The position numbers and the translations under genes were made by a program. From an uncultured Phycisphaerales bacterium (GTDB lineage: Bacteria > Planctomycetota > Phycisphaerae > Tepidisphaerales > Tepidisphaeraceae): a stretch of DNA of 64,000 bases. The notes beneath the pieces are model-generated. The model was not told the DNA's origin and ran no database searches. It was given only the letters and a program-made list of their open reading frames with translations. Positions 12,085-25,993 of the stretch are shown piece after piece; the first letter of the stretch is position 1; the number at the start of each line of letters is the position of its first letter. The stretch covers positions 3,552,001-3,616,000 of the forward strand of contig CAVWVQ010000003.1 in assembly GCA_963758525.1 (NCBI GenBank), written 5' to 3'.

Positions 12085-12100
12085 ATTGCGGAGCGGCACC

Positions 12101-12580
12101 GGATCGCACTGGTAGTTCATTCCGTCGAAAATTCGGGGGGACAACGTAGGGCGGGATTCATCCCGCCACGCCTTCCGTAAGACGACAGACCACGGCGGGA
12201 TAAATCCCGCCCTGCGGCATCGGATCGCACTGGTGGTTCATTCCGTCGAAAATTCGGGGGGACAACGTAGGGCGGGATTCATCCCGCCACGCCTTCTGTA
12301 AGACGACAGACTACGGCGGGATAAATCCCGCCCTGCGGCATCGGATCGCACTGGTGGTTCATTCCGTCGAAAATTCGGGGGGGACAACGTAGGGCGGGAT
12401 TCATCCCGCCACGCCTTCTGTAAGACGACAGACCACGGCGGGATAAATCCCGCCCTACGGCATCGGATCGCACTGGTGGTTCACTCCCGTCGAAAATTCG
12501 AGGGGGCAACGTAGGGCGGGATTCATCCCGCCACGCCTTCTGTAAGACGACAGACTACGGCGGGATAAATCCCGCCCTAC
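12101..12580. repeat. Four tandem ~121-bp units, each with a family A REP doublet (BIME/REPIN-like array)
   Basis: Units start GGATCGCACTGGT at 12101, 12222, 12343 and 12465 and are nearly identical along their length. Confidence 0.9.
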
Positions 12581-12668
12581 ACGAGACAGACCCGCAAGTT
12601 CCGATGGAATGTACCACAGTGAGTGGGCGAATTTCCGGCGTGTTTCTTCTTGCCTCCTCCCCTCGTAC

Positions 12669-14444
12669 GGGGCCTGTCGATTTATGTGGAACACCCATTG
12701 CATCTTTGCCGGCGTGGCGCTGAAATGCTTGCCCAAGCACGGAGGCTTCGCAATGGGTCACTGGGCAACTCCCCGTCTGGATCGCAAACAGGTCACGCTT
12801 TTCGCGCCTACTCTCGATGCGTCGATTGCCGACGATCATCCCGTACGCCTCTTCCACGAGACGCTGGGGAGGATCGACTTCTCCCCCTGGGAAGCATCGT
12901 ACGTGCGGGTGGTCGGCCAGCCTCCGATCCATCCGCGGGTGCTGGCGGGATGCATTCTCTATGGATTGTCGCTGGGAATCCGTTCCAGCCGCAAGCTGGA
13001 GGACGCGGCCGCCAACCGGCTGGATTTCATCTGGCTGCTGGAGGGACGCGTCCCCGATCACGCAACGATCTGCAAATTCCGCACGCAGTTTGGCAAGCAG
13101 ATCAAGGACCTGTTCCGACAGGTCGGCCGGGTGGCGATGTCGCTGGGGCTGGTGTCGCTCAATTCGGTGATGCTCGACGGGACGGAGCTGAAGGCGAACA
13201 ACAGCCGCTACGCGACCAACCGCCGGGCGTCGCTGCAGCAGAAGCTCGATGCGTTGGACGTTCAGGTCGATCGCTTGATGGCCGAGGCGGACGCCGCGGA
13301 CAAGGCCGACGCTCAGTTGTTTGGGGAGAGTTCTCCGACGAAGCTGCCCCGGGAGCTGAGCGATCTCAAGGCCCGTCAGGCGCGTCTGCAAAAGGCGATG
13401 GACAGCGTCAATGAGATGGAAAAGCAGCGTGGGAACCGCAAGGACATGCCGCAGGGGCCGGCGATTCCGACCACCGACCCCGAGTCGCGCGTGCTGCCGG
13501 CCAAGCAGGGGGGCTACGCGCCCGCTTACACCGCGGTGCTGGCCACCGACGCGGATCATGGCTTCATCGTGGACACGCAGATGCTGGCCGGCAACGACGA
13601 GGCCTCCACGGTGCTGGCGGCGGTGCAAAACATCGAGGAGCACTTTGGCCGCAAGCCCCGGGAAATGATCGCGGATTCGGGGTTCAACACCGGGCCGAAC
13701 CTCGCGGGGCTCCAGGAGCAGAAGGTCGAGGCGCTGATGCCGCCGCGGCAGGAACTGGACGCGTCGGCGGCGCAGCGACCGGATCCCTCGCAGCCGGTGG
13801 CCGAGGCGGATCGCCCGCGTCTGCCGGTCAACCCGCAGAACAAGGTGCTGGACCGTTCGGGATTCACCTACGATGCGGCGGCCGATCAGTATCACTGCCC
13901 CATGGGACAAGCGATGCCGCGGGTCGATGACAAGCCGTACAACCGGCACGGGAACAAGGGAACCTATCAAATCTACCAGAGCCCCGACTGCGCCGGTTGC
14001 CCCCTGAAGAGCCGCTGCCTCAGCGGCAAGTCGCCGACGCGACGGGTCTGCCGCGACGAATACCAGACGCTGCGCGAGGCGATGGCAGGCCGGATGCAAA
14101 GCGAGGCCGGCCGGCAACGATATAAACAGCGCGCGGCGGTGGCGGAGCGGGCGTTTGCGGTGTTGAAAGCCAGAATGAACCTGCGGCAATTGCTGCTGCG
14201 CGGGATGGAAAAAGTGCAGATCGAGGTTGATTGGGCGGCCGCGGCGTTCAACCTGATGAAATTGATGGCCCTGACGGCAAAATAACCGGGCAGAAGCAAA
14301 GGAAAAGATCGGCTTGGACGAAAGCTGGTTCATAAAGATGGACTGATGCAGCGGAGGAAAAACGGGCAACGCGAATTCCGGCAGCCTACTGCCGAGATGA
14401 GCCGGCCTCGGAACCTGGCGGGCCGAGGTTAAAACGACAGGCCC
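12669..14444 (+). mobile_element. IS1182-family insertion sequence
   Basis: IRs GGGCCTGTCGATTTAT (12670-12685) and TTAAAACGACAGGCCC (14429-14444), 14/16 match; TAC duplicated on the flanks; single transposase. Confidence 0.85.
12753..14285 (+). CDS. IS1182-family transposase
   Basis: GGAGG RBS; DHPVR, GIRSSRKLE, PDHATICKFR, LDGTELKAN, TTDPESR, ADSGF, Cys cluster, YKQRAAVAERAFAVLK. Confidence 0.9.
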   Translation: MGHWATPRLDRKQVTLFAPTLDASIADDHPVRLFHETLGRIDFSPWEASYVRVVGQPPIHPRVLAGCILYGLSLGIRSSRKLEDAAANRLDFIWLLEGRVPDHATICKFRTQFGKQIKDLFRQVGRVAMSLGLVSLNSVMLDGTELKANNSRYATNRRASLQQKLDALDVQVDRLMAEADAADKADAQLFGESSPTKLPRELSDLKARQARLQKAMDSVNEMEKQRGNRKDMPQGPAIPTTDPESRVLPAKQGGYAPAYTAVLATDADHGFIVDTQMLAGNDEASTVLAAVQNIEEHFGRKPREMIADSGFNTGPNLAGLQEQKVEALMPPRQELDASAAQRPDPSQPVAEADRPRLPVNPQNKVLDRSGFTYDAAADQYHCPMGQAMPRVDDKPYNRHGNKGTYQIYQSPDCAGCPLKSRCLSGKSPTRRVCRDEYQTLREAMAGRMQSEAGRQRYKQRAAVAERAFAVLKARMNLRQLLLRGMEKVQIEVDWAAAAFNLMKLMALTAK

Positions 14445-16372: not shown

Positions 16373-17120
16373 ATGAACTACACCATTCACGGCACCACCA
16401 TGCAGACCCTGTCCGTCGAGCTATCGGCGGGCGAAACGCTCTACAGCCAGACGCACGCCATGGCCTGGATGAGCGACAACATTCAGATGCAAACCCACAC
16501 CGGCGGCGGAATCCTCGCCGGGCTGTCGCGCAGCTTCGGCGGCGGATCGTTCTTCATCACCGACTATACCTCGGCCGCAAATGCGCAGCATCGCCTTCGC
16601 GCCGCGCTTCCCCGGCAGCATCCTCCCATTCAAGCTTGCGGCCGGCGAATCGATCCTCTGCCGAAAGCAGACGTTCCTGTGCGCCGAGAAATCCGTCACG
16701 TTTGAAATCGCCTTCCAGAAACGCCTTGGCGCCGGTTTCTTCGGCGGCGAAGGCTTCATCATCCAGCGACTCACCGGGCCCGGCACCGTCTGGCTCGATC
16801 TCTCCGGCGAAGTCATCACCTACGACCTCGCCCCCGGCCAGAAAATTCTCGTCCACGCCGGCCACGTCGGCGCCCAGGCGCCGTCGGTCAACTTTGACGT
16901 GCAGATGCTCAAAGGCTTCCGCAACATTCTCTTCGGCGGCGAAGGCCTCTTTCTCGCCAGCCTGACCGGCCCCGGCAAAGTCTGGCTCCAAAGCATGCCG
17001 ATCATGAATCTCGCCGAAGCCATTGCCCAATATTTGCCGCGCGGCGACAGCGAGTCCGCCTCGCAAAGCGTGGCGGGAGGAATTGTGGGAGGGGTGTTGA
17101 GGGGGTTGCTGAAGAGCTGA
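16373..17120 (+). CDS. TIGR00266/AIM24-family protein; frameshift near 16580
   Basis: [17 protein letters not shown]...; [17 protein letters not shown] and [23 protein letters not shown] in the second frame. Confidence 0.85.
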
Positions 17121-17521
17121 CGCAGCGCAGCGCTATTCCGCAAACATCGGCAAAAATACGAGCGAAAGAAGCGAGATCAAGAGCACTCACTCGAAAGTGG
17201 CGAATGGCTCCGAGTAGGGCGGGATGAATTCCGCCCTGCCACCGCAAAGATCCGCAATCACCACAAAAGTTACACCCGTCCGCGGAAGAGCTGCCGGTTG
17301 ATACATCGTTCGTGCGAATGCTTTTCTACGGACCTTTGTACAGCGCACAAAGGTCCGCAGGAGGGCGACGCGCATTCTCGGGCTTCGTGCTTATTTGCGC
17401 GCCCTCCTACGGACCCTACGCAACTGGGGTGTTGCGCTCGAAAGTGACGATGGCTCCGAGTAGGGCGGGATTCATCCCGCCGATTTGTTGGCCGGCCGAG
17501 GAAACGGCGGGATGAATTCCG
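17109..17521. repeat. Composite REP-containing repeat, direct copy of 20181-20637
   Basis: Near-identical sequence starting CTGACGCAGCGCAGCGCTATTCCGC in both places. Confidence 0.88.
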
Positions 17522-17685
17522 ATCTGCTGAAGATCCCACGTGCAGAATCCTCGAAAGCTCGTCAGCGTCCGCGTAGCCGCCCTTGTCGAGCCAGTCTTCC
17601 ATGAGATTCGGTTTTCGGGGCCGAAGAAGATTCCCATTTGTCGACTCATATCACCCAGAACGTCGCGCGGTTAACATCAACGTAG

Positions 17686-18138
17686 ATGGCGAAGCTTGGC
17701 GCGAGCGATTACCGAATCGGCGCGAGGGAACGACTGGAAGAAGCGTATTTTCTGCTGCGCCAAGAAAGGTTCGGCGGCAGCATCTACCTCGCCGGCAGAG
17801 CTGTCGAGGGAATGCTCCGCGCGGTCATCTGGAAAAGCGATCCGGAGTATGTCACTGGTAAGAAGAACTTAGAAACAGGGCACGGTTTACGGAACCTGCT
17901 CGACTTGGTGGGCGAGATCGGCGTTTTGCGGAACAACCCTCTGAGGGACGACATCGGGGCACATGTGCAGCACGTCGGACCACTCTGGTGGAACGACATG
18001 CGGTTTCTTCCCCAAAACCGGATCAAGACCCGCTGGTTCCAACTCAACGAAATCGGCGGAAAACGGACATTCAAACTCGCCGCGAATGAGTATTATGACT
18101 CGTGCTCGGCGATCGTGAAGAGATGCGAGGCAATATGA
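17686..18138 (+). CDS. HEPN domain protein
   Basis: ARERLEEAYFLL...GSIYLAGRAVEGMLRAVI...TGHGLRNLL...WWNDMRF pattern of stand-alone HEPN proteins. Confidence 0.75.
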   Translation: MAKLGASDYRIGARERLEEAYFLLRQERFGGSIYLAGRAVEGMLRAVIWKSDPEYVTGKKNLETGHGLRNLLDLVGEIGVLRNNPLRDDIGAHVQHVGPLWWNDMRFLPQNRIKTRWFQLNEIGGKRTFKLAANEYYDSCSAIVKRCEAI

Positions 18139-18428
18139 CAAAACTGACGAAGAAGAAGCTCGAAGCAATTCTGACTCGTCGGCTCTGCTTGGTGGACCCG
18201 GAATTCCGACTGGAGAAAGCCTCCGAGCGGCTGATCGGCAACGTCATTTCCCTGACGTTCAAGGGCAAACGCGATCACGAACGGCAAAAAATGATCTGGG
18301 ACGCGCTGGAGGCCGAGTTCGGCGAGGAGTCGGTTCTGCTCGTCGGAATGTTGTTGGCCTATACCCCGGACGAGTGGAATCTGGACGCGGATCAGAAGTC
18401 GGCACCCAAAGCGAAAAAGGCCGGATGA
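18135..18428 (+). CDS. Small BolA-like / degenerate MNT-like protein coupled to HEPN
   Basis: ATGA overlap; VISLTFKGKRDHERQKMIWDAL...LLAYTPDEW. Confidence 0.6.
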   Translation: MTKLTKKKLEAILTRRLCLVDPEFRLEKASERLIGNVISLTFKGKRDHERQKMIWDALEAEFGEESVLLVGMLLAYTPDEWNLDADQKSAPKAKKAG

Positions 18429-18491: not shown

Positions 18492-19705
18492 GTACTCCAG
18501 CGCGCTTTGTTTGATGACTCGCGCTCTCGCTTTTTAGACGGTATGCTTTAGGCATGGTCCAAGCAAGGAGGCAACCATGTTGAAGGCTAACGTTGTGTCT
18601 TTGACCGGCGAGCAGCGAGAGGAATTGAAGCGGATCAGTCGTTCTGGAAAAAGTTCCGCACGAAGGGTGGTTCGAGCGCGGATCCTGCTCAAGAGCGACA
18701 TCGGAGAGACCGATCAGGAGATCTCCGAGGCGCTGGATGTCGGCGTGGCAACGATCGAACGCGTCCGCAGAAAGTTTGCCGCTGGCGGAATAGAGGCTGC
18801 CATCGAATCGGGTCCGCAGCCGCCGCGTCCGCAGAAGCGGCGGTTGGATGGCGAGGGCGAAGCCAAACTGGTGATGCTCGCCTGCAGCAGGCCATCCGAC
18901 GAACATGGGCATTGGACGCTGGATTTGCTGGCCGGCCAGATGGTGAAGCTGAACTACGTGCCGGCGATTTCCGGGGACACTGTCGGTCGGGTTCTAAAAA
19001 AAACGAAATCAAGCCCTGGCTGAAGGAAGAATGGTGCATTCCGCCCGATGCCAGCGGCGAGTTTGTCTATCGCATGGAGGATGTTCTGGAGGTTTACAAG
19101 CGGCCTTATGACCCGCTGCGGCCGGTGGTGGCATTGGACGAAAAGCCTCTGCAAATCCTCTCGGACACGCGCAAGCCGATCCCTTGTGAACCCGGCAGTT
19201 CGGCCAAGCAGGACCACGAGTACAAGCGTAACGGAACCGCGAACATCTTCTGTGCCGTCGAACCACTGGGAAACTTTCGCCGCCTGGAATTGACCGAGCG
19301 CCGGACCAAGCTGGACTTCGCCCATTTCGTCAAGGACCTGGTCGATACGCGGTACAAAGACGCACAGAAGATCGTGCTGGTGATGGACAATCTCAACACG
19401 CACAGTCCGGCCAGTTTCTACGACGCTTTTTCGCCCCAGGAAGCACGGCGTCTGACGGAAAAGCTGGAGATCCACCATACGCCCAAGCACGGCTCATGGC
19501 TGAATGTGGCAGAGATTGAACTGAGCGTCGTCGGACGCCGACTGCGTGATCGATGTGACAACATAGAAGATCTGGCCCGGCAATTGGCAGCAATCGAACG
19601 AGATCGCAACCAAGCCGCCAAAGGCGTCGATTGGCAATTCACTGTCGACAAGGCACGGATAAAGTTGAAACGGCTCTACCCATCATTCGAAATGCGGTAG
19701 ACTAC
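18492..19705 (+). mobile_element. IS630-family insertion sequence
   Basis: Ends CTAGTACTCCAGCGC and GCGGTAGACTACTAG (12/15 inverted match), TA within CTAG on both sides. Confidence 0.88.
18577..19700 (+). CDS. IS630 transposase, two ORFs joined by a probable programmed -1 frameshift
   Basis: HTH ORF then DDE ORF (ALDEKP, EYKRNGT, MDNLNTH, HGSWLNVAEIE); A8 run at 18996-19003 gives LKKNEIKPW. Confidence 0.9.
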
Positions 19706-20009: not shown

Positions 20010-21090
20010 GTATGGCGGGATTCATCCCGCCGACTGACTTTTCACCGAAACACGTGGCGGGATGAATCCCGCCCTACAAACTGCGGACCTTTGTTCGCCG
20101 CGCAGACGGTCCGCAGAAGGGCGACGGTGCTCGTGCGCGGATTCGTGTTCATTGGGCGCCCTCCTGCGGACCCTACGGCACTGAAAAACTGACGCAGCGC
20201 AGCGCTATTCCGCAAACATCGGCCAAATACGAGCGAAAGAAGCGAGATCAAGAGCACTCACTCGAAAGTGGCGAATGGCTCCGAGTAGGGCGGGATTCAT
20301 CCCGCCGATTTGTTGGCCGGCCGAGAAAACGGCGGGATGAATCCCGCCCTACCACCGCAAAGATCCGCAATCACCACAAAAGTTACACCCGTCCGCGGAA
20401 GAGCTGCCGGTTGATACATCGTTCGTGCGAATGCTTTTCTACGGACCTTTGTACACCGCACAAAGGTCCGCAGGAGGGCGACGCGCATTCTCGGGCTTCG
20501 TGCCTATTTGCGCGCCCTCCTACGGACCCTACGCAACTGGGGTGTTGCGCTCGAAAGTGGCGATGGCGCCGAGTAGGGCGGGATTCATCCCGCCGATTTG
20601 TTGGCCGGCCGAGGAAACGGCGGGATGAGTTCCGCCCCTCCCATCGCAAAGATCCGCAATCGCCACAATTAAAAGTTATCCCCGTCCGCGGAAGAGTTTC
20701 CGGTAATACATCGTTCGTGCGAATGCTTTTCTACGGACCTTTGTACACCGCACAAAGGTCCGCAGGAGGGCGACGCGCATTCTCGGGCTTCGTGCTTATT
20801 TGCGCGCCCTCCTACGGACCCTACGCAACTGGGGTGTTGCGCTCGAAAGTGACGATGGCTGCGAGTAGGGCGGGATTCATCCCGCCGATTTGTTGGCCGG
20901 CCGAGAAAACGGCGGGATGAATCCCGCCCTACCACCGCAAAGATCCGCAATCACCACAAAAGTTACACCCGTCCGCGGAAGAGCTGCCGCTTGATACATC
21001 GTTCGTGCGAATGCTTTTTACGGACCTTTGTAAACCGCACAAAGGTCCGCAGGAGGGCGACGCGCATTCTCGGGCTTCGTGCTTATTTTT
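20010..21090. repeat. REP array with ~290-bp tandem units
   Basis: Units start at about 20354, 20643 and 20934 (last partial); each holds family A doublets and GGACCTTTGT/ACAAAGGTCC and GGAGGGCG/CGCCCTCC hairpins. Confidence 0.88.
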
Positions 21091-21273
21091 AGCCCTGCCT
21101 GTTTTAAGATGCTCTTTAAAGTTTCGGGCGGCACCTCCTTCGAAAGTTTGCCGCCGCCGGAATCGATCACCGTCCCTGCTTCTCGGGTGCCGACACTGCA
21201 TATGACTCCCCACAGTTCGCGTGAGACGCCATCCGTTCGCCTCGATCACTTTGATGATGTCCCGGTATTTCAT
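21085..21273 (-). pseudogene. hicA: HicA-family toxin, frameshifted, with no hicB
   Basis: MKYRDIIKVIEANGWRLTRTVGSHMQCRHP then, in another frame, GGKLSKEVPPETLKSILKQAGL; the 3' end abuts the repeat array. Confidence 0.75.
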
Positions 21274-21295: not shown

Positions 21296-24200
21296 CTAGC
21301 TGCACCCCATCGAATTCCCGCAATTCAAGCACTTGTAGCAAGTCCCGCTGCGGACGGTGATGCTGCCGCAGACATCGCAGGCCGGCGCGTCGGCTTGCAA
21401 CTCGCTCCCCTGCTGGCTCAGGGGATCGGAGACGATCGCCAGGCGGAGATTGGCGCCGCTGGGCGTGGGGGCGCCGACTTCGGGAGCCTGCAGGTGGCTG
21501 CTGTGAGCCTCCTTGAGCTGTTCATCAGTGGCAGAGCCGTAGTTGAAGGGCTTCGCGGTATCGATTTCAATGCGCGGGCCGTGACCGTTGCCGGATTTCT
21601 TCTCGCTCGTGGGGGCGGGACGCATGTCGCTCGTCTCCGCTTCGGCCGTCGCGGGCAGTGCGATCGGCGTCGCTGATTCCAACGTCGGCGAGGGTGCGGG
21701 CGGGATCGCGGGTTTCGTGCGCCGCGGAGCGTGCTGGGCGCGGTAGCCGGGCACGAATTCCATCGCGAGCCAGCGGAAGATGTAATCGACCAGCGACTTG
21801 GCGATCGGGATCTCAGGGTTGCGCGTCATGCCGCTTGGCTCAAAACGGACATGCTCGAACTTGCGGACCAGCGATTCGACAGGCACGCCATATTGCAGGC
21901 TGACGCTGACAAGCGTGGCGATGGTGTCCATCAGCCCGCCGATGGTGGAGCCTTCTTTGGCGATGCGGATGAAGACTTCGCCCGGTTGGCCGTCGTCGTA
22001 CAGACCGACGGTGATGTACCCTTCGTGACCGGCAACGTCGAACTTGTGCGTCTTGGCGGTGCGCGTGTCGGGCAGCCGTCGGCGCAGCGGACGCTCCACG
22101 ATGCGCTCTACGATTTTCTCGATCGTGTGATGATGCACCGGCGCGATATTGTCAGATGAGATTGCGGGGACCAGCGCGAGCGATGCGGCAGCCACGACGT
22201 CGGCGGCAACCTCCTCGCGCGCGGCCAGCACGGATTCCTCGTCATCCTCTTCCAGCTCGTCGATTTCCTCGTCGCTCTTCACGTTCAGCGGCTGGCTCAA
22301 CTTGGAACCGTCGCGATACAGCGCGTTGGCCTTGAGACCGAGCTTCCAGCTCAGCTCGTAGCTCTTCTGAATGTCTTCGATCGTCGCCTCATTGGGCAGA
22401 TTGATCGTCTTGGAGATCGCGCCGCTGATGAATGGCTGGGCCGCGGCCATCATGCGGATGTGACCCTCGACGGCGATGTATCGCTTCCCGTGCCTGCCGC
22501 ACTTGTTGGCGCAGTCAAACACCGGCAGGTGGACGTTTTGCAGGCCCGGCGCGCCTTCGATGGTTCCGTGACCGCAAATCACATCGTTGGCTTCGTCGAT
22601 CTGCTTCTTGTTGAAACCGAGCCGGCGGAGCAGATTGAAGTTGGGCGACTGCCATTCGCCTTCGGAAATACCCAGCCGGTTCATCAGATCGGGGCCCATC
22701 GCCCATGGATTGAAGGCAAACGAGATCTCAAACGTGCCGGGGAGCGCGGCCTCCACTTTTTCCAGCTCGGCATCGGTGAAGCCGAGGCGCTGAAGCCGTT
22801 CGTAACTGATGTGCGGCGCGTCGTGGAGCGTGAGGGTGCCCATGACGTACTTGATGATGTCGTGAATCTGCGTCGGCTCGTAGCCGAGATTTTCCAGCGC
22901 GGGCCGGAGCGATTGATTGGCGATCTTGAAGTAACCGCCGCCGGCCAGTTTCTTGAACTTGACCAGCGCGAAATCGGGCTCGACGCCGGTCGTGTCGCAG
23001 TCCATGAGCAGCCCGATGGTGCCGGTGGGGGCGATGACGGTGGTCTGCGCGTTGCGGTAGCCGTGACGTTCTCCCAGCGCCAGCGCGCGGTCCCAGCATT
23101 CGCGGGCCGAGGACAGCAGCGGACGGGGCGCCATCGGATCGGCATCTGAGAATTGCGTCTCGTCGATACCGACCGGCTCGATATCCAGGTGCTCGTAGGG
23201 ACCGGTCGCTTTGCGATGGGTCGGGGCCTTGCTTACGTTGTAAGCCGCCCGGCGATGATTGCGGATCACGCGGAGCATCTCCGCCTGGTTTTGCTCATAG
23301 CCGGGAAATGCGCCTAGCTCGCGAGCCATCTCCGCGCTGGTGGCGTAGCTCTCGCCGGTCAGAATTGCGGTGAGGGCGCCGCAGATTGCCCGTCCCTTCT
23401 CCGAATCGTACGGAATGCCCGCCTGCATCAGCATTGCCCCCAGGTTGGCATACCCCAGGCCGAGGGTCCGGTAGTGGTAGCTGAGCCTGGCGATTGCTTC
23501 GGAGGGGAAGCTGGCCATGAGCACCGAAATTTCCAGCACGATCGTCCAGAGGCGAATCCCGTGCTTGTACCCCTCCACGTCGAAGCGGCGCGACTCGGCG
23601 TCGAAAAACGTGAGGACGTTGAGCGATGCGAGATTGCACGCCGTGTCGTCGAGGAACATGTATTCCGAGCAGTTATGAACGGTCAATCCGTTCGCGACAA
23701 AGCTGCCGGTGACCGGTTCGGTCAGATCGAAAACCTGCTGCTTGCCGAGCGGCGTGAGCGTGGCGACGTGATCGTAGTTGGGCAGATCGCCGAACCTCGA
23801 CACCGATCCGCCGGCGGCTTCAGTCAGTTGAGAGAGCAGCGGGCCGGGAAGCAGAGAGATCGATTCACAAAAAGAGCGGAGGCTGCCCGGCTCAATACGC
23901 AGGCCGTGGCGTCTGGATTCTGCGTGCCCGGATTGATCGTCCGAAAGGCGACCGGACAGCGCTCCGCTGGCGAAGGCTCCGCCTTCGCATGTGTTGAGTT
24001 GCACCGACGACTGAATTCCAAAACCCGCAAGGAGGAGTTGCACGTCTTCCAGGAACCCGACGCTGTTGTGCTCGAGCGCGAGGATTCCGTCGCGAAGGCT
24101 CCCGTCGGCGGTGAAGAGCCCGCGAAGCAAATGCTTTTGCGCGGGCAGACCCGCGGTAAAGGCCTCATCGCCCAGACGCGTCTCACCCGTATCGGCGCGG

Positions 24201-25993
24201 AGGAACGCCTTGAGCCGGCTGATGAGCCGACGGTTGGTCAGCGTCGCGGTGAGCGTGTCGGCGCTCTCGTCTCCGAGCATGACCTGATTGACATAGTCAT
24301 CGCGATATCGTCGTTCACCCCAGGTGTCGGCGACATATCGCGTGTACTGATCGATCGCGGCCGCATCTCGCAGGCAGGCATCGAGCTTGACGGTGTTTGC
24401 ATCGTGGTTCGCGTTCGACAGCAGCAGGCCAAGAACCTGGAAGAACCGGGCGTCGGTCGGCTCGCCGATTTCTTCAACGCATGCCGGCCGGCTGGGAAGC
24501 TTGATCTCGTCCGACGCGGTGAGGTCCTGCGCCGCAACCCAGCCGCGATGGCGCGTCCAGACCTTGTGATCTGCCGTGAGTTTCAAGCGGTATCCGCCGG
24601 CGGTTCGCAGCTCGAAAACCTCGCGGGTGCCGGTGGGGAAAGCGCCGTCGGTGCCGTGGATTTCCTGCGAGTCTTTGTTGGTGATGATCCGGCTGGGGAG
24701 ATGAATCATCTGATCGATGCGGCGCCAGATTCCGCCGGGGGTGAGCACGCGCGTATCTCCGGTCACGCACGGATTCGACGCGTTGATCCGGCCCGATCGC
24801 GGGCAGGTGTGCCACTGGTTGATCGTGTCGTCATATTGCACGCCCGGGTCGGCGCAACGCCAGGCGGCAAACGAGATTTGCTCCCACAGATCGCGCACCT
24901 TCACCGTCTTGGCGACCTTCCCGCTCGAGCGCCAGGTGAGCGTCCAGTCGCCATCCTCCTCAACCGCCTTGAAGAAACGATTGGGGATGCGGACGGAGTT
25001 GTTTGAGTTTTGGCCGGAGACGGTGAGATAACCTTCGCCATTGAAATCGTAGTCCAGCTTCAGCCCGAGCTTTTTGGCCAACTCCTGCTGCGGCTTGGAC
25101 AGATGCTTGATCCCTTCCGCCAGCGCGGCAACCTTGAGCTCTTCGCGCACTTTCCAGTTGACGAAATCCTCGATATCCGGATGGTCCAGATCGAGGCAGA
25201 CCATTTTGGCGGCCCGGCGCGTCGTGCCGCCCGACTTGATCGCGCCCGCGGCACGGTCGCCAATTTTCAGGAAGCTCATCAGCCCCGAGGATTTTCCGCC
25301 GCCCGAGAGCGGCTCGTCTTCACCGCGGATTTTCGAGAAGTTGGTTCCGGTGCCCGAGCCGTATTTGAAGAGACGCGCCTCGCGCGTCCAGAGATCCATG
25401 ATGCCGCCCTCGTTCACCAGGTCGTCTTTGACCGATTGGATAAAGCAGGCATGAGGTTGCGGATGTGAATACGCGTCGCGGCTCTTCTGCAGCTCGCCGT
25501 TCTTGGGATCGCAATAGAGATGCCCCTGCGCCGGGCCGGTGATGCCGTAGGCAAAGTTCAGCCCCGTGTTGAACCACTGCGGCGAGTTGGGCGCGCACAT
25601 CTGATGCAGCAGCATGTAGGCCAACTCGTCATAAAAGGCCTGCGCGTCCTCGGCGGTGTCGAAATACCCGTGCTTCTCGCCCCAGTAGCGCCAGCATCCG
25701 GCCAGGCGATGCACCACCTGCCGCGCGGATTTCTCCGGGCCGGTGACGATATTGCCGTGCGCATCGCGGATCGGCTGCCCGCTCTCGTCGGCCAGCGGAA
25801 CACCCGCCTTGCGGAAATACTTGCTCACCATGATGTCGGTGGCAAGCTGCGACCACTGGGCCGGAATCTCCGCGTCATTCATCTCGAAGACAATCGAGCC
25901 GTCGGGATTGCTGATCCGGCTCGTGCGCTTCTGATATTCAACCGATGCGAATGGGTCCTGTCCGGCCTTGGTGAATCGACGGGTGATCTTCAT
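21296..25993 (-). CDS. nrdJ: Class II (B12-dependent) ribonucleotide reductase with intein and C-terminal TSCPD/Zn-ribbon
   Basis: APNSPQWFNTG, ACFIQ, GGTTRRAAKM, NASNP|CSEY, ACNLAS, IAPTGTIG, SGAISKTINLP, CDVCG...CLNCGNSMGCS. Confidence 0.95.
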   Translation of the reverse strand: MKITRRFTKAGQDPFASVEYQKRTSRISNPDGSIVFEMNDAEIPAQWSQLATDIMVSKYFRKAGVPLADESGQPIRDAHGNIVTGPEKSARQVVHRLAGCWRYWGEKHGYFDTAEDAQAFYDELAYMLLHQMCAPNSPQWFNTGLNFAYGITGPAQGHLYCDPKNGELQKSRDAYSHPQPHACFIQSVKDDLVNEGGIMDLWTREARLFKYGSGTGTNFSKIRGEDEPLSGGGKSSGLMSFLKIGDRAAGAIKSGGTTRRAAKMVCLDLDHPDIEDFVNWKVREELKVAALAEGIKHLSKPQQELAKKLGLKLDYDFNGEGYLTVSGQNSNNSVRIPNRFFKAVEEDGDWTLTWRSSGKVAKTVKVRDLWEQISFAAWRCADPGVQYDDTINQWHTCPRSGRINASNPCVTGDTRVLTPGGIWRRIDQMIHLPSRIITNKDSQEIHGTDGAFPTGTREVFELRTAGGYRLKLTADHKVWTRHRGWVAAQDLTASDEIKLPSRPACVEEIGEPTDARFFQVLGLLLSNANHDANTVKLDACLRDAAAIDQYTRYVADTWGERRYRDDYVNQVMLGDESADTLTATLTNRRLISRLKAFLRADTGETRLGDEAFTAGLPAQKHLLRGLFTADGSLRDGILALEHNSVGFLEDVQLLLAGFGIQSSVQLNTCEGGAFASGALSGRLSDDQSGHAESRRHGLRIEPGSLRSFCESISLLPGPLLSQLTEAAGGSVSRFGDLPNYDHVATLTPLGKQQVFDLTEPVTGSFVANGLTVHNCSEYMFLDDTACNLASLNVLTFFDAESRRFDVEGYKHGIRLWTIVLEISVLMASFPSEAIARLSYHYRTLGLGYANLGAMLMQAGIPYDSEKGRAICGALTAILTGESYATSAEMARELGAFPGYEQNQAEMLRVIRNHRRAAYNVSKAPTHRKATGPYEHLDIEPVGIDETQFSDADPMAPRPLLSSARECWDRALALGERHGYRNAQTTVIAPTGTIGLLMDCDTTGVEPDFALVKFKKLAGGGYFKIANQSLRPALENLGYEPTQIHDIIKYVMGTLTLHDAPHISYERLQRLGFTDAELEKVEAALPGTFEISFAFNPWAMGPDLMNRLGISEGEWQSPNFNLLRRLGFNKKQIDEANDVICGHGTIEGAPGLQNVHLPVFDCANKCGRHGKRYIAVEGHIRMMAAAQPFISGAISKTINLPNEATIEDIQKSYELSWKLGLKANALYRDGSKLSQPLNVKSDEEIDELEEDDEESVLAAREEVAADVVAAASLALVPAISSDNIAPVHHHTIEKIVERIVERPLRRRLPDTRTAKTHKFDVAGHEGYITVGLYDDGQPGEVFIRIAKEGSTIGGLMDTIATLVSVSLQYGVPVESLVRKFEHVRFEPSGMTRNPEIPIAKSLVDYIFRWLAMEFVPGYRAQHAPRRTKPAIPPAPSPTLESATPIALPATAEAETSDMRPAPTSEKKSGNGHGPRIEIDTAKPFNYGSATDEQLKEAHSSHLQAPEVGAPTPSGANLRLAIVSDPLSQQGSELQADAPACDVCGSITVRSGTCYKCLNCGNSMGCS
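23672..24769 (-). mobile_element. Intein (366 aa) with LAGLIDADG-type homing endonuclease remnant
   Basis: Block A CVTGDTRV, block B TADHKVWT, LRGLFTADG, block F VFDLT, block G VHN followed by C. Confidence 0.93.

Follow-up and report, generated by a model that had tools for sequence, protein, structure and literature searches.

The 64,000 nucleotide stretch analysed in this study, referred to below as the window, carries a two-gene unit in which a HEPN-fold protein is paired with a BolA-family protein that lacks the BolA histidines. The HEPN gene (150 aa, 17686..18138, + strand) encodes a predicted toxin of the class II, PF05168/HEPN-T-like type. The BolA-family gene (97 aa, 18135..18428, + strand) encodes the predicted antitoxin. 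The HEPN plus histidine-less BolA module is real, conserved and apparently undescribed, and no published description of it was found in a literature search that was light on subscription journals. The interpretation we favor, with somewhat better than even confidence, is a toxin-antitoxin module composed of a class II HEPN toxin and a non-enzymatic, histidine-less BolA-type antitoxin. If this is true, the BolA fold, whose established work alongside glutaredoxins is the handling of iron-sulfur and metals, gains an antitoxin role in a conflict system. The module also offers a clean test of whether class II HEPNs are toxins, a question raised in PMC7641770, without AMPylation as a confounder.

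The HEPN stop codon and the partner start codon share the sequence ATGA (18135..18138, + strand), as the initial annotation had claimed, and the two genes are probably translationally coupled. The motifs quoted in that annotation were also located, TGHGL and DMRF in the HEPN protein and VISLTFKG, ERQKMIWDAL and YTPDEW in the partner. The partner ATG overlaps the HEPN 3' end by 4–31 nt in 23/23 genome loci checked, a count that left out one frameshifted and one truncated locus. The gene pair is 56% GC vs 61% for the genome. It is flanked by an AIM24-family gene and, 3' of the partner, by an insertion-sequence gene with HTH matches, which we take to be IS630. No promoter-like site was found on the coding strand upstream of the pair, nor was an operator, and the upstream regions of 24 loci shared no motif by eye.

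The window HEPN matched the Pfam HEPN family PF05168 at E 0.0036 with 17.9 bits, which is below the cut-off of 22. A paralogous HEPN (L005) cleared the cut-off with 26.8 bits. PF05168 was matched by 66/83 close homologs at E≤0.05 and by 41/79 broad-family HEPNs at E≤0.01. The structure model (pLDDT 93) has the four-helix HEPN fold, and its top five structure matches are HEPN domains. The matches include 1ufb (TT1696; Z 14.3, rmsd 2.6, 119 aligned), the sacsin HEPN 3o10 (Z 14.3), and ST0689 and AF0298 (Z 13.1). Foldseek ranked the TT1696/sacsin/ST0689/AF0298 group first, with none at E≤0.001. The HEPN profile found nothing significant among PDB sequences; it aligned to MNT-linked HEPNs with 96% probability.

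According to the initial annotation the HEPN protein has no obvious Rx4-6H motif. The absence was confirmed, as no conserved His follows R106 in the HEPN family, and the RX4HXY pattern, present in 10/178 HEPNs, is not conserved. It is however not a novelty. Class II is made up of PF05168 HEPNs that lack RX4HXY and have a conserved Tyr, and as toxins they had not been validated as of PMC7641770. HEPN-T proteins lack the motif His and retain the Arg plus a second, upstream His, which is described as a possible alternative site (PMC3710099). Because class II HEPNs lack the motif (PMC7641770, PMC3710099), its absence is a class trait. AbiV, whose motif is Rx5H and whose antitoxin is an RNA (10.1101/2024.05.05.592566), is for these reasons no test of a site formed by H66, R106 and E41.

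The residues of the proposed alternative site, an upstream His, the motif Arg and Ex3[KR], have conserved counterparts in this family. The segment Y34-x2-G37-x3-E41-x3-R45 (17785..17820, + strand) contains Ex3[KR], a HEPN helix 2 motif described in PMC3710099. Among 115 broad-family HEPNs, Y34 is found in 97%, G37 in 98%, E41 in 97% and K/R45 in 94%, and W101 is also conserved. H66 (17881..17883, + strand), the candidate catalytic histidine, is present in 115/115 broad-family and 83/83 close-family sequences. In R106-F107 (18001..18006, + strand) the Arg is near-invariant (98%). Position 107 is Tyr in 71% and Phe in 26% of the 115 HEPNs, and Phe in 78/83 close homologs. H66 and R106 are the His of TGHGL and the Arg of DMRF. 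With F107, the window subfamily lacks the conserved Tyr that could accept AMP. Since most of the wider family keeps it, the Tyr was not lost in step with the change of partner.

The initial annotation had called the partner BolA-like and not a canonical MNT, and Foldseek, structure and profile comparisons all place BolA first. A profile of 73 close partner homologs matched 13 PDB sequences, all of the BolA type, with BolA2 the best (E 4e-7). Foldseek ranks 1–22 were BolA-family entries and the first MNT appeared at rank 30 (E 0.044). A wide structure search aligned the partner with BolA 3o2e (Z 9.8, rmsd 2.3, 81 aligned), and hhalign aligned it with 30 canonical planctomycete BolA sequences (98.3%, E 1.8e-14). 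By homology and by its class II KH-like fold the partner belongs with BolA, and it scores below the Pfam cut-off. Partners are often auto-annotated as IbaG/YrbA, and therefore the module is hidden in annotations.

Likeness to BolA/IbaG(YrbA)/Fra2 (PF01722; PMC7538681) extends over sequence and fold, including F-x-G, the R-helix and T-P-x-E-W. The conserved partner core consists of F42, R50-Q51, W55 and T77-P78-x-E80 (18258..18374, + strand); in 115 partners F is conserved at 97%, R at 95%, Q at 80%, W at 71%, P at 83% and E at 91%. Two histidines serve as metal and Fe-S ligands in BolA (PMC7538681). The partner differs from the BolA family in lacking both of these and the RH histidine. The three His columns are occupied in 100/96/100% of canonical BolA (n=30) vs 0/6/1% of partners (n=115), and strong conservation of polar residues is confined to R50, Q51 and E80; a His or Asp pair is absent. 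A monothiol glutaredoxin neighbour was found at 0/142 partner loci vs 17/30 canonical BolA loci, and canonical BolA loci had a HEPN neighbour in 0/30 cases. Because the Fe-S histidines and the glutaredoxin neighbour are both missing, the partner counts as a BolA homolog that has lost the metal site. No canonical BolA was found in the source genome, which is 91% complete. No separate DNA-binding domain was found in the partner. Longer fused forms were absent at E≤0.01 among 7990 candidates, which is weak evidence.

Tandem and two-domain forms of the partner exist. Tandem two-domain histidine-less BolA proteins were seen in P0238, P0244, P0245, P0253, P0257, P0264, P0265, P0269 and P0287 and at L064:2998-3630. 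A form of ~175 aa, coupled to divergent HEPNs (L344, L362, L364, L365, L372), has a BolA-like domain (93.6% profile match) and a second, unassigned domain.

The partner also lacks the GS..DxD motif, as had been claimed. GSX10DXD was found in 38/38 control MNTs, and a loose version of the pattern occurred in 14/178 partners, none in the MNT register. A mis-called MNT start was rejected, because the frame stops 11 codons upstream of the partner ATG and no MNT motif lies there.

We next consider whether the partner could be an MNT without catalytic activity that either came to resemble the BolA pattern by convergence or is ancestral to it; the module would then be a decayed class II HEPN/MNT system. 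The partner shares a topology with the MNTs, matching two MNT structures at Z 5.8–5.9 (1ylq Z 5.9, rmsd 3.5, 77 aligned), but acyl-CoA ligase, RimP and transporter domains score equally well. The partner profile aligned in register over its full length with 13 HEPN-linked MNTs (E 8e-4 over 78 columns). The same 13-MNT profile gave E 0.23 with canonical BolA, and reversed controls gave E 0.15–0.68. This signal fell to E 0.34 with 25 other MNTs and E 0.055 with all 38 MNTs, whereas an unrelated transporter domain of similar topology gave E 0.0065. One hint remains: the partner aligns at E 4e-4 to 6e-4 with a different family of small partners found in its HEPN clade. There is also a precedent in the HINPO preprint, where a domain that follows a HEPN is termed an inactive nucleotidyltransferase (10.64898/2026.10.19.760177). 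BolA is nevertheless far closer than MNT by profile and by structure (E 1.8e-14, Z 9.8), and we consider a dead MNT very unlikely. The special BolA-MNT link proposed in the initial annotation was not borne out, as the MNT signal fades with more sequences and is no better than that of an unrelated domain. We counted the resemblance as shared topology only. In a joint reading, partners of the HEPN clade pass from active MNT through dead MNT-like to BolA-like forms, the histidine-less BolA proteins constitute a new antitoxin class, and such an antitoxin gave rise to the Fe-S BolA of bacteria and eukaryotes; we regard this combination as quite improbable.

By eye, two further small partner families encoded after HEPNs of this clade resemble dead MNTs (L351, L352, L354-L360, L363 and L064:2320-2709; L326, L337, L341 and L361). 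Those scanned gave no PADLOC match, and the L064 protein, the sole one compared with Pfam, had no match. HEPNs of a different subfamily are followed by an 83–107 aa alpha/beta protein (L128:1125-1376 in the source genome, L310, L313, L314, L026) for which similarity to BolA or MNT could not be detected. It is another undescribed partner type. In L127:1781-2191 (source genome) and L319, a 136-aa gene without an MNT motif or a Pfam match precedes the HEPN gene.

At E≤0.001 and with the query included each time, 76 partner and 108 HEPN homologs were identified. Conservation of the pairing was confirmed by a gene-neighbourhood survey. The partner lies directly downstream in 24/25 genome loci found via the HEPN, and the 25th is at a contig edge. 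These 25 loci belong to Phycisphaerae, Tepidisphaerales or unclassified Planctomycetota. Among 80 metagenome loci found via the partner, a HEPN lies directly upstream in 58 and is absent from that position in 15; the remaining 7 have <450 nt of upstream sequence. In the order Tepidisphaerales, 71/141 genomes contain 1–6 partner copies. Outside the order such pairs were found in 5/300 sampled genomes of the phylum, with 12 candidates scored per genome. A library-wide search with the partner profile retrieved 493 representatives (E≤0.001) that include some ordinary BolA. In the Atlas the partner falls in Planctomycetota clusters and the HEPN in PF05168 clusters, which we treat as leads only. Two partner queries had no match on plasmids, the HEPN had one weak match in Nostoc, and 0/49 candidate stretches from viral contigs were confirmed. 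Like type II toxin-antitoxin systems, the module consists of two coupled genes and has a patchy spread in several copies.

The window subfamily occupies 20 different neighbourhood groups in 24 loci. Several other subfamilies are fixed behind housekeeping genes across many genera, two of the sites having 27 and 32 intact loci. The fixed positions are behind groEL (Pfam Cpn60) and two other genes, presumably a glutamate-synthase-like gene and a MoxR-like gene. Such sites would suit a non-toxic regulatory pair, in which a catalytically weak HEPN and a KH-like BolA protein would together modulate the surrounding housekeeping operons by binding RNA or nucleotides. The lack of Rx4-6H would suit it as well, and some motif-less HEPNs have been suggested to only bind RNA (PMC3710099). 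However, the host genes vary by subfamily and have no function in common, and the module is missing from half of the genomes. H66, R106 and E41 are moreover 97–100% conserved at a median identity of 22%, which suits catalysis. A purely regulatory role thus seems quite unlikely to us.

Gene loss at these loci is one-sided. The partner-locus set (n=145) was assembled from 142 of the partner matches listed (150 of 153) and the three pairs of the source genome; three source-genome entries and five partial or tandem ones were left out of the 150. A full HEPN is present at 114 of the 145 loci, a partial or broken one at 8, a contig edge at 2 and no HEPN at 21. Two of the 21 orphan partners are degraded, leaving apparently intact partners without a HEPN at about 19/145 loci. 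Five separate positions on the chromosome carry orphans while 4–32 relatives retain both genes there (7/9 orphans tested shared a site); the orphans are related to each other and not independent. In the other direction, the best 150 of 168 HEPN matches were followed by a BolA-like gene in 136 cases and by another coupled gene in 12, with one contig end and one truncated remnant, which belongs to the source genome. A known partner adjoins 119 of these HEPN matches, and 30 more were fetched individually. The 30 further HEPN loci contain a BolA-like gene (17), a different small coupled gene (11), a ParA-type operon (1) and a contig end (1). There was no intact solitary HEPN in 148 among the matches listed, found with a profile that was built from partner-adjacent HEPNs and may under-sample orphans.

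One-sided loss is the pattern that would be expected if the HEPN were harmful without its partner, and it appears to fit a toxin-antitoxin pair neutralised without nucleotidylation. It also bears on a reversal of roles, in which the BolA-like protein would be the toxin, with the upstream HEPN as the antitoxin. In such dyads the first gene is usually the antitoxin (PMC3710099), and UVI31+ is a BolA-fold DNA endonuclease (PMC6137056), so a nuclease of this kind could be imagined. The losses run the opposite way, since among the matches listed it is the partner that survives alone and never the intact HEPN. A UVI31+-type triad would need a His, and none is conserved in the partner; pairs with active MNTs can likewise have the HEPN gene first (L306, L316). 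We find reversed roles extremely improbable.

Both genes are under purifying selection. Of 20 disjoint pairs, 13 were measurable for the HEPN (median dN/dS 0.07) and 17 for the partner (median dN/dS 0.13). HEPN and partner distances correlate with r 0.87 over 156 non-redundant pairs, vs 0.08 for the best of 999 permutations, a value inflated by common descent at fixed sites. Covariation over the 156 pairs (effective 131 sequences, 208 columns) gave a top inter-chain z of 5.6 vs 2.9–4.4 in three neighbour-swap controls; the covarying pairs are scattered, and the neighbour-swap control strips lineage signal. An unrooted HEPN tree (n=47) contained 29 partner-linked representatives (<45% identity), 11 MNT-linked HEPNs and 7 others. 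The partner-linked HEPNs group together on one side of a 97/93 branch, apart from the 11 MNT-linked ones. One long-branch HEPN with a different partner sits on the partner-linked side.

The nearest described systems are class II HEPN/MNT and HINPO/PDC-M28. The class II HEPN/MNT systems (PF05168 + PF01909; PMC7641770, PMC3710099) have the same HEPN fold and subfamily, with TT1696, ST0689, AF0298 and sacsin as the top matches, and likewise form small coupled two-gene units with an upstream His, a downstream Arg and no RX4HXY. The module in the window differs in its partner, a BolA homolog without GSX10DXD, in the separate branch its HEPNs occupy relative to the sampled MNT-linked ones, and in the Phe at the modifiable Tyr position of the window subfamily. 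Class I HepT/MntA type VII systems of Shewanella and Legionella (PMC7641770, PMC11586414, the latter on regulation of class I systems) also pair a HEPN with an adjacent small alpha/beta partner. Here, in contrast, RX4HXY and an adenylyltransferase are lacking, and structural similarity is lower (5yep Z 8.0).

HINPO consists of a HEPN, an inactive nucleotidyltransferase fused to ParA, and ORC/CDC6 (10.64898/2026.10.19.760177). We infer that PDC-M28 is the same system; the available main text of the PDC preprint does not name PDC-M28 (10.1101/2024.01.29.577857), and "BolA" is absent from the available text of the HINPO preprint (10.64898/2026.10.19.760177). As in the window, the HEPN gene comes first and a small non-catalytic alpha/beta domain follows. 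The HEPNs are also related, as 41/79 HEPNs of the clade match the PADLOC model PDC-M28A at E≤0.001. The module could then be a stripped-down HINPO/PDC-M28 relative that acts as a minimal phage defence, the BolA-like protein activating the HEPN after sensing or binding nucleic acid or a phage protein. DNA binding is possible for BolA-fold proteins (PMC6137056), and at one related locus (L368) the HEPN precedes a two-frame gene with a weak resemblance to PDC-M28B in its first part and a ParA-type motif in its second. The window HEPN itself reaches only E 0.013 with PDC-M28A, and none of 70 partners reaches E≤0.001 with a PADLOC model. The module differs further in having no ParA or ORC/CDC6, the partner being a stand-alone 97-aa ORF with the IS gene next to it. 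No credible ParA motif was found in 250 loci with 1.2–3 kb flanks, and the flanks scanned contain mostly housekeeping genes. One ParA-linked N-terminal region showed no similarity to the partner. An activator model does not predict the absence of solitary intact HEPNs. We therefore rate an anti-phage sensor or activator as unlikely. Locus L368:1047-2860 itself looks like a HINPO/PDC-M28 locus.

Under the toxin-antitoxin interpretation, the HEPN would be toxic, a predicted RNase using H66, R106 and E41. By analogy to other HEPNs it may cleave tRNA or rRNA. The partner, which has no nucleotidyltransferase site, would hold the HEPN inactive by direct binding, and the HEPN might be released when stress or phage infection removes the partner. 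In favor of this interpretation are the folds, the overlap, the pairing, the lost metal ligands, the lack of an MNT motif, purifying selection, divergent copies and one-sided loss. The many neighbourhoods of the window subfamily and the correlated HEPN and partner distances also count for it, and the conserved polar HEPN residues match the proposed HEPN-T alternative site. Against it are the lack of a separate DNA-binding domain in the partner and of an upstream operator or promoter, and the fixed sites behind housekeeping genes, which make the module less mobile than a selfish one. The matches of clade HEPNs to the anti-phage candidate PDC-M28A also count against it, since the partner may have a sensing or activating function instead.

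The source genome has three intact HEPN/BolA-type pairs with 23–37% identity, plus two remnants. Beside them are three ordinary MNT-then-HEPN class II modules (L123, L124, L125), and one of these HEPNs has an internal stop. In the window, the AIM24-family gene (16373-17120) is in two overlapping frames, possibly owing to a frameshift or a sequencing error. Transposase genes lie at 18577-19700 and 12609-14285; the former is split between two frames that meet at a stretch of A, which suggests programmed frameshifting. Long intergenic repeats with palindromic cores occur in both orientations at about 17120-17610, 20270-20950 and 12100-12740, and the same element recurs near other loci of the source genome. 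A HicA-like ORF (20929-21273, - strand) matches the first half of the Pfam domain only and is probably a broken toxin gene. A gene at 21296-25993 (- strand) encodes a 1565-aa protein that we take to be a class II ribonucleotide reductase with an apparent intein insertion.
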